The translations under genes were made by a program, and so were the position numbers. The notes below the pieces were generated by a model that was not told where the DNA came from, made no database searches, and saw only the letters and a list, made by a program, of their open reading frames with translations. Source: an uncultured Candidatus Saccharibacteria bacterium (GTDB lineage Bacteria; Patescibacteriota; Minisyncoccia; Phycocordibacterales; UBA5272). From it: a stretch of DNA of 64,000 bases. Shown here one piece after another: positions 784-14,222 of the stretch (position 1 is its first letter; every line of letters begins with the position of its first letter). The stretch is from NCBI GenBank assembly GCA_964464695.1, contig CAYXKW010000001.1:36810-100809 (forward strand), given 5' to 3'.

Positions 784-1413
784 TTATATAAATTGAGCAG
801 CTTGCTTATATTTTCTCTCTAAGAATATAGTTTTATCTTTATATACTGACCGTAGTATGCATATGCTGTCTTTTTTTCCATACGTGAGAACATGCCAAGA
901 TTTGTTTTTTGGAGAGTAGATCCATCCACCCACACTATCATAATCCTTCCGAATTTCATTGGAGATCCACTCAATAAATTCATAACTTGCGGACGCAAGT
1001 CTAATGCGTACTTGTTTACGAGAGCTTTCTTTATGAGTATAAATATCAATATTGCCATCTCCGTCAATACATCCACGTAAAAAATGATAAAAATATTTTT
1101 TAGGAATAAGTAATTTACCGATTGTTTTAGATTTATTCTGAGTTAAGTTAATTGACAGTAAAAAATTATAAAAATGGGTATCTCCTATCTGGAGTACAAA
1201 ATATTTTTTATCAGGATTACTTCCGCTTCCTTTTCTTCCAATTTTCAAAGAAAGGGAGAAAAATGTTTTTAAGTCTTCTAGTAATTTAACATCTTTGGAT
1301 GTGATAACTATATGTCTAACATCTGACGATAAATTTCCATCAGTTGCAATAATCCCAATGAGATATGCTAAAGTGGGTGACCATTTTGTGGGGATATGTT
1401 TTTGTTGTTTCAT
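784..1413 (-). CDS. LAGLIDADG-family homing endonuclease, free-standing
   Basis: 209 aa with two LAGLIDADG-like motifs (LAYLIGIIATDGNL and FLRGCIDGDGNI). Its stop lies 1 nt from the rluA-like start. No flanking intron or intein context is visible. Confidence 0.8.
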   Translation of the reverse strand: MKQQKHIPTKWSPTLAYLIGIIATDGNLSSDVRHIVITSKDVKLLEDLKTFFSLSLKIGRKGSGSNPDKKYFVLQIGDTHFYNFLLSINLTQNKSKTIGKLLIPKKYFYHFLRGCIDGDGNIDIYTHKESSRKQVRIRLASASYEFIEWISNEIRKDYDSVGGWIYSPKNKSWHVLTYGKKDSICILRSVYKDKTIFLERKYKQAAQFI

Positions 1414-1553: not shown

Positions 1554-1635
1554 GCCCAGGTGGTGAAATTGGTAGACACATCAGTCTTAGGAACTGATGC
1601 CGCAAGGCGTGAAGGTTCAAGTCCTTTCCTGGGCA
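1554..1635 (+). tRNA. tRNA-Leu (anticodon TAG)
   Basis: Manual fold: acceptor GCCCAGG/CCTGGGC; D arm GTGAAATTGGTAGACAC; anticodon stem TCAGT/ACTGA with loop CTTAGGA; long variable arm; T arm GAAGG-TTCAAGT-CCTTT; discriminator A. No encoded CCA. Confidence 0.85.
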
Positions 1636-1639
1636 CATC

Positions 1640-1861
1640 ATAATAAATACCCACTCTGTAATCAGTGTGGGTATTTATTATGATGTGAGTATTAGAAGCA
1701 AGTGACCAGCTGATTAGTAAATCACGTCGGGAGACGCTAACTTGCGTAAGGACTTGAATACGGCGATTAGTAAATCGTACCGTGAGGAGGTCGCGAAACT
1801 ACTTCTAGTGAAGCTGATTAGCAAATCACGCCGAGAGGCGCTAGGAGTTTCGTGACAAAAT
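1640..1861. mobile_element. tRNA-Leu-associated mini-element (about 220 bp) with hairpin, three GCTGATTAGTAAATCACG motifs and a conserved tail
   Basis: Perfect 14-bp-stem hairpin at 1641-1680. Motif copies at 1709-1737, 1763-1794 and 1813-1841. Tail GGAGTTTCGTGACAAAAT at 1844-1861. Bounded by a 19-bp direct repeat of the tRNA 3' end (1621-1639 = 1862-1880). No ORF inside. Confidence 0.55.
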
Positions 1862-1880
1862 GTCCTTTCCTGGGCACATC
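1862..1880 (+). repeat. Direct repeat: second copy of tRNA-Leu 3' end (gtcctttcctgggcacatc)
   Basis: Exact 19/19 match to 1621-1639 (T-stem 3' half, acceptor 3' strand, discriminator, 4 nt). att-site-like duplication. Confidence 0.85.
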
Positions 1881-1884
1881 TACA

Positions 1885-1917
1885 AAAAAAGTGAAGTCAT
1901 ACGACTTCACTTTTTTA
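1885..1917. terminator. Bidirectional rho-independent terminator
   Basis: aaaaaaa-GTGAAGTC-atac-GACTTCAC-tttttt: perfect 8-bp stem flanked by A-tract and T-tract. Sits between the tRNA element and the convergent minus-strand gene. Confidence 0.6.
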
Positions 1918-1993
1918 TTTTATTAAATATAAAAAATAAAAACCCCGAAACGATTGAACGTTTGACGGGGTTCGAGTGCGGCGTGTGCCGTAC

Positions 1994-3010
1994 TTATGTT
2001 GCTTGCTGAGAAGAAGATTTCTTCTTCAGTTGACCGACGGTGTTGTATCCACCCTTGGTTACTGCATAGACAGTCAGGACGTCACTTCCTTTCGGCAGGA
2101 CGCCAACCCAGGTACCGGAATTGAGGCCGGCAGTCTGCAGTTGCTTGATGGCCGAGGTATCCTCGAACACCAAGATCTGACGTGTCTCGTTGCGCAGCGT
2201 GACGTTGCGCTGGTCGAGGGCCTCCGGCATGTCATGCGACGACTCCTTTTGCTTCGGAGTTGATGCCGACACTGGAGTTGAGTTCACCTTCTTCACCTTC
2301 GAGTTTTTCTTCCCGACGATGAAGGCTTCAATAGGTTGTCCTTCACCATTTGTCATGATGACGTACTTGCCATGTGGCAAGCACAACCACTCCGCCTCGG
2401 TGGTAACAGGGATGCCAAAGAAATGTTTTCCTTCGGCGCTCCAAGCCTCCACCGTTTTGCGAGCAAGAACACTTTCCATGAACAAGGTCCGACGCAAACG
2501 AGTTTCGTCGTTTGCTTTCTCAATTTCGGTTTGTTGCATCATTGCAGCTTCGCGAGCTGCCTGGGACCGCTTGCGAAGGATTTCTCCTTCTTCTGGCGAA
2601 TACCAATAGTCCAACTCGAGGCCGGCTGCGACCGCGATCTTGATGTCGAGCAGGACTTCGAGGGAAGATGCACCGGCAGTAATGAACTTGCCCGCAAACT
2701 TGACCGTAACCGAGTGAGCAAAGTCGTTCACCCGCATGACGGAGAAGACAACGTCATTGTCCTGGATGGTGATGACGAATTCGTCATCAAACACGATAAG
2801 ATCAGCAAACTGACCTGGCTTGGTGCCAGCAGTCTGGTAACTCCACGCAAGTTCACCCCACTTCAGAACCTTCGCAGGCCGGAAGCCGTTGGTGCCATCA
2901 CGATTGCCCGTGTACTTGCCGCTGCGGAACATTTCGATAACAATTCCGTCGACAGCCTTCACTTCGCAGACTTCACCAGCGGGAACGTTGCGATGATTTG
3001 TGGTTTCCAT
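1994..3010 (-). CDS. Hypothetical protein, GC-rich (about 55%), likely horizontally acquired
   Basis: 338-aa ORF spanning the whole GC-rich block 1976-3055. No recognisable motif. Composition contrasts sharply with about 35% GC flanks. Long ORFs on the opposite strand are shadows expected in GC-rich DNA. Confidence 0.55.
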   Translation of the reverse strand: METTNHRNVPAGEVCEVKAVDGIVIEMFRSGKYTGNRDGTNGFRPAKVLKWGELAWSYQTAGTKPGQFADLIVFDDEFVITIQDNDVVFSVMRVNDFAHSVTVKFAGKFITAGASSLEVLLDIKIAVAAGLELDYWYSPEEGEILRKRSQAAREAAMMQQTEIEKANDETRLRRTLFMESVLARKTVEAWSAEGKHFFGIPVTTEAEWLCLPHGKYVIMTNGEGQPIEAFIVGKKNSKVKKVNSTPVSASTPKQKESSHDMPEALDQRNVTLRNETRQILVFEDTSAIKQLQTAGLNSGTWVGVLPKGSDVLTVYAVTKGGYNTVGQLKKKSSSQQAT

Positions 3011-3265
3011 GGGGAACCTTTCCTTTCTTGGCTAAAAAGCCTTTGGTTTCAATGAACTAACATAGGAAGCAGTATGTAAACTGAATTCCATATATATAGT
3101 ATACATTAAATATTGATTTTGTCAAGTAATTTGTCTATTAAAAATCTTTGGTAACATTGTAGTTTAATGGTTTTTTAGTGTAGGTGTGTGATTGATACAG
3201 GAATTAGAAAGGGCGCCCGTAGGGCGCCCTTTCTAATTCCTCACTATCTTTACAGACTACATTTT

Positions 3266-12570: not shown

Positions 12571-12667
12571 GGCACAATATCAGAAGAAGAAGCAACAAAA
12601 CGAGCGCCTACGGCGCTCGTTTTGTTGCTTCCCAACAACGCTATTTTATGCTATTATTTTCTAACTT

Positions 12668-12751
12668 GCGTCGGTGGTGGAGTGGTCAATCACAACAGAC
12701 TGTAAATCTGTCGCCCTTCGGGCTTCGCTGGTTCAAATCCAGCCCGGCGCA
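12668..12751 (+). tRNA. tRNA-Tyr (anticodon GTA)
   Basis: Manual fold: acceptor GCGTCGG/CCGGCGC (one G-U); anticodon stem ACAGA/TCTGT with loop CTGTAAA; long variable arm; T arm GCTGG-TTCAAAT-CCAGC; discriminator A. Confidence 0.85.
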
Positions 12752-12756
12752 CATGA

Positions 12757-12796
12757 AAATCTAAATGCCACAGTTACTGCTGTGGCATTTAGATTT
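12757..12796 (+). terminator. Perfect 17-bp-stem hairpin immediately 3' of tRNA-Tyr
   Basis: aaatctaaatgccacag-ttactg-ctgtggcatttagattt followed by ttta. Likely the tRNA terminator or part of the mini-element. Confidence 0.6.
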
Positions 12797-12990
12797 TTAC
12801 TGTGCATTGTGGAGATGGTTTTGAACTGCTGATTAGTAAATCACGCCGTGAGGCGATGGCCGCAGCTTGCATACTCCAAGAGTCACTCTGGTGAGCGAAG
12901 AGCGGGTGTAGGTTTCGAGCTTAGCAAAGCGAGAGACAAATCCAGTCCGGCTTTGGGGGTGTGACGAGGAGTTTTGTGACCAAATCCAGT
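12797..12990. mobile_element. tRNA-Tyr-associated mini-element related to the tRNA-Leu one
   Basis: GCTGATTAGTAAATCACGCCGTGAGGCG copy at 12828-12855. GC-rich spacer. Partial tRNA-Tyr 3'-end duplicates at 12936-12951 (acaaatccagtccggc, 14/15 match) and 12981-12990. Tail GGAGTTTTGTGACCAAAT at 12968-12985 is near-identical to the tRNA-Leu element tail. Confidence 0.5.
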
Positions 12991-13103
12991 TGCAAAGCTT
13001 GCATCCAAGTCCAAGACATAACCTTGGTAGGTTAGATGTGAATTTGGCAATTCAGAACTGCTAGTTCGCCTGCGCACAAGAAAAATACCCGTTAGGGTAT
13101 TTT

Positions 13104-14222
13104 TTAATGATGGTGATGACTGTCTCCCGTAATTTCTTTTCCGTGAAGCATGTAAGAAGCAATGAGTGTCGTAATTGGTACAGCAAGAACAAGTCCGATA
13201 CTACCTATTAATATACGAACTACTTCCGTAGCAAAGATTTCACTATTTAATATAAAGAGGGCACCAACTGTTGAGCTTTGTATAAGTAAAAGAAGTGGAA
13301 GGGATGCACCAACATAGGCAATTGCAAGTGTGTTAACTAAAGCACCGATGTGTTCTCGTCCAATACGTATCCCGCGCGTGTATACTTCTTTACGACTTAA
13401 ATGTTTTCCTGCTCTTAAAAGTTCTTCTATTACAATTGCTTGACCGATTGCTATATCATAAAGAACTCCAAGTAATCCAATCATGATTCCTCCAAATAAA
13501 AGTCCAACCATGTCAATTGCTCCACGGGTATTAAAGGTAAGATATGTTGCTTCATCTGAACTATATCCACTTAGATTTCCCGCATATACAACGTAGTATG
13601 CAGCTAGGCCTGTAAGGATAACGGTAATAATCATGCCTATTACAGCAGCTGTTGTTGTTCGGTTAAAGCCATGGGTGATATATGACCCAACTATGATGAT
13701 TAATGAGGCTACCCCAGTGCTTACTAGGATTGCATTATGTCCGCCGTATAAACCTGGAATGAGAAGATAGAAAATAAGAAAAAAACTCCCAATCAAACTA
13801 GCTAGACCTCGCACACCCTGAATGCCACCAAAAATAAATATAAGAGCAACAAAAGCAATAGTTAACCATAGAAGAATATCTAACCTGTATGGATCGGCTA
13901 CTGACCAGTAACTAGTATTCTCTAACTGGTTACTCTGATGTCTAGCATAGAAGATTTCTCCTTGCTTGAGTTGAATATAATCATTTTTAAAAGTAACTGT
14001 TTTTCCTTGATCAGGTCCACTAATTACTTCTATTTGTATTGTTTGAACTTGTCCAATTGTGTCAGTTCCTGCAACTGTCGTTGTTCCTTGCTCAATAATT
14101 TTAATTACCTTAGCTTTTTCAAAAGTCTCAGTATCTACTACGAGTGTAGCTTCTTGAGCAAACAACAAAGAAGGTATAAGAGTAATGCTAAGCAGTGAAA
14201 GTAAAAGTAGTTTCTTGAACAT
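13104..14222 (-). CDS. YibE/F-family integral membrane protein
   Basis: 372 aa. Signal/TM, then multiple TM helices with the Gly-rich YibE/F pattern. Natural His-rich C-terminus (DSHHHH). Confidence 0.7.
   Translation of the reverse strand: MFKKLLLLSLLSITLIPSLLFAQEATLVVDTETFEKAKVIKIIEQGTTTVAGTDTIGQVQTIQIEVISGPDQGKTVTFKNDYIQLKQGEIFYARHQSNQLENTSYWSVADPYRLDILLWLTIAFVALIFIFGGIQGVRGLASLIGSFFLIFYLLIPGLYGGHNAILVSTGVASLIIIVGSYITHGFNRTTTAAVIGMIITVILTGLAAYYVVYAGNLSGYSSDEATYLTFNTRGAIDMVGLLFGGIMIGLLGVLYDIAIGQAIVIEELLRAGKHLSRKEVYTRGIRIGREHIGALVNTLAIAYVGASLPLLLLIQSSTVGALFILNSEIFATEVVRILIGSIGLVLAVPITTLIASYMLHGKEITGDSHHHH

Follow-up and report, generated by a model that had tools for sequence, protein, structure and literature searches.

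A family of small cassettes with sense and antisense copies of the adjacent tRNA end behind tRNA and tmRNA genes of Patescibacteria

Why should two different tRNA genes of one bacterium be followed by the same succession of hairpins and repeats, each with duplicates of its own tRNA end? The question is raised by the DNA behind tRNA-Tyr in a stretch of 64,000 nucleotides from an uncultured Candidatus Saccharibacteria bacterium (contig CAYXKW010000001.1 of assembly GCA_964464695.1, positions 36,810 to 100,809; hereafter the window, meaning this whole stretch). A preliminary description, made from the letters of the window alone, had taken this region and its counterpart behind tRNA-Leu for members of one family of elements associated with tRNA 3' ends, each with cognate end duplicates. 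This proposal is borne out by 35 loci of the Candidate Phyla Radiation (CPR, Patescibacteria) and by controls on the cognate nature of the duplicates: the family consists of small (~80-280 nt), non-coding cassettes directly 3' of tRNA and transfer-messenger RNA (tmRNA) genes in Patescibacteria. The likeliest reading, to which we would give an even chance, is that of a selfish, non-autonomous cassette that encodes a structured RNA and recombines at tRNA ends. Loci from other genomes are designated by L numbers.

The family was traced through a double-hairpin unit of the form [Y-GATT-AGYA-AATC-R][CGYC-GNRA-GRCG], in which a stem YGATT/AATCR with an AGYA loop is followed by a GNRA-looped hairpin. 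When a 25-nt pattern of this unit (~39 bits) was run over 185,579 species genomes (596 Gb), where by our own estimate ~2 matches would be expected by chance, it returned 35 matches, all 35 of them in assemblies of Patescibacteria (Saccharibacteria, Paceibacterota, Nomura-, Taylor- and Gracilibacteria). Most lie 36-530 nt 3' of a tRNA or tmRNA gene and on the same strand; the host tRNAs are those for Val, Leu, Ser, Thr, Pro, Ile, Tyr, Met and Asp, tmRNA is the host in L036 and L017, and several contigs end within cassettes. A covariance model trained on 43 unit copies, taken from the window as well as from other genomes, detects four in the 64 kb and no more (at 1708, 1761, 1812 and 12827; E 1e-16 to 1e-19), all of them behind the two tRNA genes that the window holds, tRNA-Leu(TAG) and tRNA-Tyr(GTA). 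Among these four, two-sided changes in two stems keep the pairing and the GNRA loop is invariant. Over all 43 copies 96.6% of cells pair, and the stems covary (pair 4-17: UA 24, CG 18, UG 1; pair 20-27: CG 30, UA 12, GC 1) with a score that none of 500 shuffles reached. Pair 4-17 is an independent test, because column 4 lies outside the search pattern. There is thus next to no probability that the likeness of the two window regions is a coincidence or the product of a terminator consensus shared by their tails: both regions are indeed hairpin-rich and intergenic, but such an account is refuted by the significance of the unit, by the 35 of 35 CPR matches lying mostly by tRNAs, by the cognate controls and by the place of the tail within a stem, both given below.

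On the tRNA strand, the cassettes follow a common plan that runs from a segment X through a terminator-like hairpin, a segment X' and the interior modules to a second, direct X. X is the tRNA from T-loop to 3' end, in some loci running into the trailer. X' is the reverse complement of X and ends at T54; it is contiguous in L010 and L020 and otherwise split at the acceptor/T-stem junction by a hairpin with a CUGC loop (H1) into X'1, which is anti-acceptor, and X'2, which is anti-T-arm. The second X starts at T-loop position 56-61, and X'2 is predicted to pair with it, closing the interior as a multi-branched fold of the sense strand. The interior modules are the double-hairpin unit (GATTAGYAAATC plus GNRA), hairpins with UAGCAA loops, and a G.U-containing stem, GGTCGCGAAAC...GTTTTGTGACC; the unit is optional, is present once in most loci, and sits in the H1 loop, in the loop of a further hairpin (H2), or in the stretch from X'2 to H2. 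Interiors of at least four types recur:

Type 1: the stem GGTCGCGAAAC...GTTTTGTGACC, whose 3' strand is the tail of the preliminary description
Type 2: the unit, then GGTCGCA... and GGTTTCGAG-(TAGCAA loop)-CGAGAGG
Type 3: two long hairpins, in L012, L030, L041 and L042
Compact type: 120 nt, in L143-145

The tail followed by a cognate tRNA-end copy recurs behind, among others, tRNA-Ile (L028), tRNA-Met (L033, L041), tRNA-Thr (L024) and tmRNA (L036, L017), so that the refuting observation named in the preliminary description, a tail motif missing from all other tRNAs, is not what the genomes show. Lying ahead of the second X, where it supplies the 3' side of a stem with G.U pairs, the tail does not represent a terminator consensus.

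The flanks belong to the tRNA beside which they lie. The cognate-flank count covers 45 tRNA and tmRNA genes, from the window and from loci chosen for carrying the unit, whose downstream sequence is long enough. Within 600 nt downstream, 29 of the 45 have an exact antisense match, 9 nt or longer, to their own last 26 nt, and 17 have a direct copy, 11 nt or longer, of their own 3' end, against 2 (antisense) and 0 (direct) of 48 upstream controls. With the last 18 nt only, which exclude the conserved T-loop, the corresponding cognate figures are 42% and 36%, vs 1.6% and 0.4% in 2,072 non-cognate pairs. The tRNAs of the mostly non-CPR loci that were fetched via ClpB are without such flanks, except for a weak, two-mismatch antisense match in L118 and L134. 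In the type-2 copies one interior goes with different flanks: the interior is nearly unchanged between the Tyr copies of the window and L031 and the His-type copies of L032 and L016 (alignment A2), and the flanks swap with the tRNA, X'2 being GGCAGGATTTGAAC (Tyr) vs TTCGGGATTTGAAC (His-type) and X CAAATCCTGCCCGACGCACA vs CAAATCCCGATAGCCACAC. Likewise, the type-3 interiors behind tRNA-Ser(ACT) and tRNA-Ser(GCT) of L012 are ~90% alike by eye, each with a cognate flank pair. X' cannot be a plain copy of the 5' half of the T-arm, which is ruled out by non-palindromic loops, where TTCAAGT is answered by ACTTGAA and TTCGATT by AATCGAA. A fixed target-site duplication in the T-loop would fit TTCGAA loops but fails for TTCAAGT loops. 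The length of the direct repeat itself varies, from 15 nt at the window's tRNA-Tyr and 19 nt at its tRNA-Leu to 36 nt in L024. Two extra bases (AT) stand in the T-loop part at the start of the second X in L010 (CGA-AT-CTCC), L033 (CGAT-AT-TCC) and L058 (CAAAT-AT-CC), and AT at such X-copy junctions may be the footprint of a joining reaction.

The fold of the cassettes is specific to one strand. For every one of 25 segments, each spanning X'2 to X, folding favours the sense strand over the reverse complement (mean -45.9 vs -38.1 kcal/mol; Wilcoxon p=1.2e-5), with a mean z=-5.6 against dinucleotide shuffles and an X'2:X helix that closes almost all of them. The sense strand still folds better in 24 of 24 once the special-hairpin (tetraloop) bonus is removed, and it holds 79 G.U pairs in 980 bp vs 30 in 906 bp for the antisense strand. 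The first part of the cassettes (tRNA end, hairpin, H1) is near-symmetric, the sense strand folding better in 18 of 31, which is the expectation for bidirectional terminators. Type-2 copies combine compensatory pairs with invariant U.G pairs (alignments A2, A3), and conserved loops (AGYA, GNRA, CUGC, UAGCAA) on variable stems look like RNA.

It is possible, then, that the cassettes are structured non-coding RNAs of benefit to the host, non-mobile and made from the tRNA or tmRNA 3' trailer for a cellular role, in which the X':X helix would serve as a stalk for processing, much like the RNase III stems on either side of rRNAs, or would imitate the acceptor/T-stem helix. This is the foremost of the alternatives. 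It would account for a strand-specific fold with conserved loops, covarying stems and G.U pairs, for conservation across CPR classes, for probable co-transcription with the tRNA, and for solo copies (L016, L032, L019) that keep the X':X pairing as the left X decays. However, a processing stalk need not equal the local tRNA sequence, presence at orthologous tRNAs is patchy, different subtypes stand behind the same tRNA in close relatives, some copies are decayed (the window's Tyr copy, for example), and copy number varies at strain level, so that we regard such a role as unlikely. At the opposite end, cassettes could be a functionless by-product of mutation, arising by hairpin-primed or template-switch synthesis at the palindromes of terminator and T-arm (TTCGAA), with modules accreting in the loops. 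X, hairpin and X' together do make up a long, perfect palindrome with the terminator loop at its centre, X' complements the gene trailer rather than CCA, breakpoints cluster in the T-loop, and L063 holds an interior-less form. Yet modules that are conserved with covariation across CPR classes, conserved loops, and the sense-strand excess of G.U pairs would be unexpected from neutral palindrome growth, which leaves this origin a slender probability.

How far the two regions of the window follow the common plan is best seen behind tRNA-Leu, where the better-preserved sister copy, cassette A, stands:

1554-1636, plus strand: tRNA-Leu(TAG), host of cassette A (ARAGORN, Rfam)
1637-1880, plus strand: cassette A (inverted and direct repeats, covariance model, folding)
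1634-1687, plus strand: first hairpin
1698-1703/1740-1745, plus strand: H1 stem, enclosing unit 1 (1708-1740)
1748-1758, plus strand: X'2, AAGGACTTGAA, antisense to the tRNA-Leu T-arm at 11/11
1761-1793, plus strand: unit 2
1790-1803/1843-1856, plus strand: H2 stem, enclosing unit 3 (1812-1844)
1862-1880, plus strand: perfect 19-nt copy of the tRNA-Leu end, identical (19/19) to 1621-1639
1885-1916, plus strand: canonical terminator after the second X

Cassette A is well preserved (fold z=-6.7). It is probably co-transcribed with tRNA-Leu, to judge by its sequence, because its first hairpin has no T-run and the terminator at 1885-1916 comes only after the second X; promoter-like sites were found inside neither cassette region of the window. 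Its three units, 63-88% alike, are spaced by 53 and 51 nt. A CRISPR array was rejected on account of this limited likeness, of the single unit in most loci, and of scanned open reading frames (ORFs) free of cas genes.

The region behind tRNA-Tyr (12753-13105) is less regular:

12668-12752, plus strand: tRNA-Tyr(GTA) (ARAGORN; Rfam tRNA 59.3 bits)
~12732-12753, plus strand: segment X of tRNA-Tyr, T-loop to 3' end, the sequence copied within the cassette
12756-12797, plus strand: terminator-like hairpin of 18 bp with 100% complementary arms (12756-12773/12780-12797) and a 6-nt loop
12814-12826, plus strand: X'2, decayed antisense copy of the tRNA-Tyr T-loop and T-stem 3' strand, GATGGTTTTGAAC; intact form GGCAGGATTTGAAC in L031
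12827-12859, plus strand: double-hairpin unit (covariance model R1, 52.4 bits, E=5e-19)
12860-12936, plus strand: remaining type-2 interior, ATGGCCGCA ... GGTTTCGAGCTTAGCAAAGCGAGAGA (blastn, alignments A2 and A3)
12937-12951, plus strand: first direct copy of the tRNA-Tyr end, CAAATCCAGTCCGGC, 14/15 (93%) vs 12734-12748, ending before GCGCACA
12965-12990, plus strand: fragment of a type-1 cassette, H2 3' strand CGAGGAGTTTTGTGAC and then the start of another X, CAAATCCAGT (blastn)
12991-13065, plus strand: putative filler of 75 nt, without significant blastn match among the fetched loci
13066-13104, plus strand: remnant of the tRNA-Tyr 3' end, CGCCTGCGCACAAGAAAA, then a terminator hairpin (13081-13104)

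What the preliminary description had listed here is present to within 1-2 bases: the perfect hairpin, given as 17 bp at 12757-12796; the module GCTGATTAGTAAATCACGCCGTGAGGCG at 12828-12855; the partial tRNA-Tyr end duplicates, a longer one given as 12936-12951 and one of 10 nt at 12981-12990; and the tail, GGAGTTTTGTGAC (12968-12980), one base off GGAGTTTCGTGAC behind tRNA-Leu (1844-1856) and without a further copy at one mismatch or less within the window. It had overlooked the antisense X' copies, the TGTGC extension of the hairpin, a third tRNA-end remnant (13069-13084), the membership of the tail in a conserved stem, the strand-specific fold and the composite, decayed state of the region. 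TGTGC (12801-12805) pairs with GCACA (12749-12753), extending the hairpin onto the last bases of tRNA-Tyr, and is a remnant of X'1; the same hairpin layout occurs with long X'1 segments in L021, L012, L030, L017 and L010. X'2 survives as an inverted repeat (12816-12826 vs 12731-12741, 91% complementary, 10/11). Two blocks, 12820-12864 and 12895-12943, match L031 at 92-93% (blastn) and are separated by an insertion of ~30 nt (~12865-12894) that is not in L031, L032 or L016; at the position homologous to 12937-12951, L031 has the full CAAATCCTGCCCGACGCACA (alignment A2). The type-1 fragment matches L028 at 96% (12965-12989) and L014 at 100% over 19 nt (blastn). The 75 nt that follow may be filler splitting the second X copy, and the third remnant is a direct repeat of 12744-12759 (14/16, 88%) directly ahead of the terminator 13081-13104, which is common to the convergent YibE/F gene (13104-14222, minus strand; Pfam). 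The segment from X'2 to X folds no better than shuffles (z=0.1). The region is a decayed composite of two subtypes, type 2 with a fragment of type 1. A promoter-like site precedes tRNA-Tyr (12629-12657). Between the end of clpB (12570) and this site lies a 20-bp hairpin (12589-12631) that is the probable clpB terminator; a simple terminator scan scores it on the minus strand only.

Cassettes come and go between related genomes. Two Saccharibacteria with the same gene order differ in that only L033 has a cassette at tRNA-Met(+) and only L041 one at tRNA-Asp. L058, the window's closest relative (86% identity in the ClpB C-terminus), carries behind tRNA-Tyr two cassettes of type 1 that are unlike the window's, the more distant L064, L065 and L083 have a terminator alone at this place, and L063 has X'2-X without an interior. 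The tRNA-Leu(TAG) genes of L139, L141 and L142 are followed by a terminator but by no cassette. Tandem arrays occur in L012, L040 and L042, and in L145 (1781-2156) a 120-nt cassette after tRNA-Leu(TAA) stands in 3.1 copies, 99% identical, that is single in L143, a locus with an identical LAGLIDADG protein and a common gene order.

Several further observations stand beside this. L140, which has no tRNA-Leu(TAG), diverges from the near-identical L139, L141 and L142 at the last tRNA bases (...GCACA, ~2400-2420), which places a breakpoint at the tRNA 3' end. Solo cassettes lie distant from any intact tRNA in L016 (3020-3260), L032 (2520-2760), L019 (6075-6645) and L013 (~1000-1300, a copy read only loosely); in the first three the left X is degenerate and X' still pairs with the right X, and the His-type copy of L032 is 1.8 kb from tRNA-His, past an ORF for a secreted protein of 476 aa. 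A tRNA-Ser with the unusual anticodon ACT (ARAGORN) adjoins cassette arrays in L012 (2629-2716, minus strand) and L018 (3274-3362, plus strand). The double-hairpin unit has one more setting, within incomplete tRNA copies: in L018 (3100-3270), L023 (3853-3945, 3998-4066) and L037 (2270-2400) the intact tRNA is closely preceded, on its upstream side, by truncated 5' copies of tRNA-Ser or tRNA-Glu that carry the unit in or after the D-loop, and the L018 copy stops in the T-loop.

Direct repeats of a tRNA 3' end are also what brackets att-flanked islands and cis-mobilizable elements (CIMEs), and such repeats are present at tRNA-Leu (1621-1639/1862-1880, 19/19), at tRNA-Tyr (14/15) and at many other loci. 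The cassettes might accordingly be read as scars of integrase islands or prophages at the T-loop sublocation, that is, as att-flanked, CIME-like deletion remnants whose modules would be arm-type protein-binding sites. T-loop-to-3'-end direct repeats, tmRNA targets and tandem accretion speak for such scars, and Williams is said to have described these features in 2002 (NAR 30:866) as the classic signature of tRNA-integrating tyrosine integrases; the plain duplicate without interior in L063 and the variable GC-rich ORFs near these tRNAs would fit as well. However, no integrase was found in any fetched locus or among the 19 window ORFs (the search covered loci, not whole genomes), and viral, phage and plasmid records match the tRNA at most. 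In addition, X' and the G.U/GNRA strand asymmetry are unexpected for double-stranded protein-binding sites, and one interior is common to more than 10 different tRNA targets. We therefore consider integrase scars quite improbable. The att sites that the preliminary description had proposed are likewise unsupported, with neither an integrase nor a common protein in the loci and the 19 window ORFs and no phage or plasmid counterpart. Its suggestion of cargo delivery is not supported either: the GC-rich stretch at 12840-13100 (50% GC) is the cassette itself, and the one at 1976-3055 (53%, the window as a whole having 38%) holds an ORF (1994-3010) outside cassette A, past its terminator.

A phage or plasmid parent was sought directly. 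Three patterns (loose unit, H2 stem, junction) run over 2.9 million viral contigs gave chance matches in GC-rich or coding DNA, without hairpin context, and a phage-borne origin was dropped; blastn against 50,697 phage and 72,556 plasmid records matched the tRNA part alone. In Rfam 15, whose families take in group I and II introns, ribozymes, Y RNA, tmRNA and CRISPR repeats, the two tRNAs alone pass the gathering threshold in the window, and E-value scans of both cassette regions gave only sub-threshold chance matches. A group I intron was accordingly rejected, there being no Rfam match for the cassette regions. No description of the family was found in Rfam or in the searchable full-text literature. 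A miniature inverted-repeat transposable element was rejected since the inverted terminal segments (X'/X) differ per tRNA and the direct repeats vary in length. TnpA and TnpB were found in neither loci nor window. Strand-specific hairpins as in palindrome-associated transposable elements (PATEs) and TnpB right-end RNAs are present; the cassette junctions fall in the T-loop (TTCRA), while the left end is tRNA-specific. The protein neighbours in the window are RluA, LAGLIDADG, ClpB, YibE/F, RbfA and IF-2 (Pfam); for ClpB, an exact look-up returned no entry.

Another possibility is that the interior is a scaffold and X or X' a guide of 20 nt, used by a nuclease or recombinase whose gene lies elsewhere in the genome, which would home the cassette to tRNA ends in the manner of TnpB right-end RNAs or IS110 bridge RNAs. 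A structured scaffold directly followed by a target-identical 3' segment, a conserved interior with exchanged target-matching segments, and a strand-specific fold are all as such a system would have them. On the other hand, X' pairing with X in cis would mask the guide, X and X' both correspond to one target segment, where bridge RNAs address two adjacent halves, no TnpB, IscB, IS110 or Cas gene lies near the cassettes in the loci and scanned window ORFs, and there is no Rfam match, so that a guide RNA is very unlikely. An IS110 bridge RNA or a retron proper was rejected for want of an adjacent recombinase or reverse transcriptase and of a common neighbour. A bolder proposal, which we consider improbable, is a novel, self-retargeting mobile element that encodes RNA, a structured scaffold that gains sense and antisense copies of the tRNA or tmRNA end at which it lands. 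Its flanks would arise by hairpin-primed, self-templated copying, or X and X' would guide an enzyme acting in trans; tRNA-processing enzymes would cut the RNA from the tRNA precursor, and the result would be a programmable, protein-less homing to tRNAs specific to the CPR. A retrovirus-like model, with a primer-binding site for mature tRNA, was rejected: X' complements the gene trailer and not CCA where CCA is unencoded, which argues against priming by mature tRNA.

We thus return to the selfish, non-autonomous cassette. Its entry or exchange would take place through recombination inside the segment from T-loop to 3' end of a tRNA or tmRNA gene, and it would supply a replacement tRNA end and a terminator, so that the tRNA is kept intact and the displaced tRNA end stays behind as a repeat downstream. 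Tandem arrays would result from unequal crossing-over between X copies. The cassette would be transcribed as a 3' trailer of the tRNA, and its RNA fold, or an equivalent fold of single-stranded DNA, would be under selection, presumably for processing or propagation. What the loci show is the family with its architecture and its cognate sense and antisense flanks, its strand-specific structure, its turnover from genome to genome and its restriction to the CPR; we infer mobility, this recombination route, transcription and the participation of any enzyme. Several points weigh against this reading. The gain of both a cognate X' and a cognate X at a new tRNA is explained by no standard mechanism. 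No pair of filled and empty sites is similar enough to give base-level insertion boundaries, the intergenic DNA of L033 and L041 being too diverged. An all-against-all blastp of the ORFs of 37 regions gave no common protein family beyond syntenic housekeeping genes, and Pfam scans of the 19 window ORFs gave no recombinase, transposase or reverse transcriptase. That modules are conserved, with covariation, in Saccharibacteria, Gracilibacteria and Paceibacteria alike might just as well be the mark of a host function, and a fold of RNA is indistinguishable from one of single-stranded DNA by sequence. The variable length of the direct repeat (19 nt at the window's tRNA-Leu, 36 nt in L024) belongs among these points, and is more in keeping with recombination inside a shared segment than with a fixed staggered cut.

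The cassettes have relatives in appearance among known systems. With tRNA/tmRNA islands and CIMEs, which tyrosine integrases insert at the T-loop sublocation, they share the bracketing T-loop-to-3'-end repeat, the intact tRNA, the tmRNA target and tandem accretion; they differ in their size of 80-280 nt, in having no integrase and no cargo, in the internal antisense copy and RNA-like fold, and in the use of one interior for many tRNAs. Repetitive extragenic palindromes (REPs) and the bacterial interspersed mosaic elements (BIMEs) built on them, Correia elements, Rickettsia palindromic elements (RPEs) and the PATEs of IS200/IS605 are likewise short, non-coding, hairpin-forming, multi-copy and variable in number, with no internal transposase, and with strand-specific folds in the PATEs and REPs as well. 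However, all of these have fixed ends without flanks derived from the target, and none is known to be limited to the 3' ends of tRNAs or to have sense and antisense copies of the end of a neighbouring gene. Integron attC and the attP(+) of CTX-phi offer a third likeness, in which a hairpin of one strand recreates the target duplex and recognition is by structure, not sequence; in the cassettes the stem has the sequence of the local tRNA end, and a large, conserved domain of several hairpins forms the loop, and the analogy is drawn from the hairpin alone. By this comparison, none of the island, REP/RPE/PATE or attC/attP systems appears to join a shared structured interior with sense and antisense ends of the adjacent tRNA. 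The 3'ETS-leuZ of E. coli is a functional 3' external transcribed spacer of a tRNA, an RNA made from the trailer of the tRNA transcript; unlike the cassettes, it is not known to duplicate the tRNA end, to belong to a modular family or to show turnover. The nearest published system is that of the group I introns in anticodon loops of Patescibacteria tRNAs (PMC13011429). They too are selfish structured RNAs at tRNA genes of the same phylum, mostly without endonuclease genes (PMC13011429), but they are bona fide ribozymes within the anticodon loop, including position 35/36, whereas the cassettes come after the tRNA, match no group I or other Rfam family, and have duplicated exon flanks.

Two kinds of gene beside these tRNAs deserve mention. 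A two-domain LAGLIDADG protein of 209 aa is encoded in the window (784-1413, minus strand), in L009 (6294-6971) and in L139-L145 (2501-3133); it is widespread in the CPR, always beside tRNA-Leu, in varying order and orientation, and is missing from the syntenic L014, and, judged by such contexts, its gene has the behaviour of a free-standing homing endonuclease linked to tRNA-Leu. The ORF at 784-1413 was rejected as a general driver of the cassettes, as it is not near those at other tRNAs and the tRNA-Leu that it adjoins may lack one (L139-142, L009). GC-rich ORFans stand beside tRNA genes in genomes of 38% GC, in the window (1943-3010, minus strand, ~53% GC), L142 (984-2183) and L058 (3737-4273), with no Pfam or PHROG match and no homology to each other. 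The terminator hairpin AACCCCGAAACGATTGAACGTTTGACGGGGTT is common to the window and L139-142 although the ORFs differ, and differing neighbours beside an identical LAGLIDADG protein would mark a strain-level recombination hot spot.

The tiny genomes of CPR bacteria (Patescibacteria) are generally regarded as very poor in repetitive and selfish DNA. In the loci considered here ~60% of tRNA and tmRNA genes are followed by cassettes, an upper bound, since the sample was selected for the unit. In practical terms, cassettes break assemblies and yield spurious partial tRNA matches, and they mark hot spots of recombination beside tRNAs, at which GC-rich ORFans without relation to each other are found. 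As functional RNAs, the cassettes would make up an extensive RNA family that annotation has missed, linked to the expression of tRNAs in a major radiation of bacteria. As mobile elements, they would represent a new way to colonise tRNA genes, by sense and antisense flanks matched to the target around a shared structured core.

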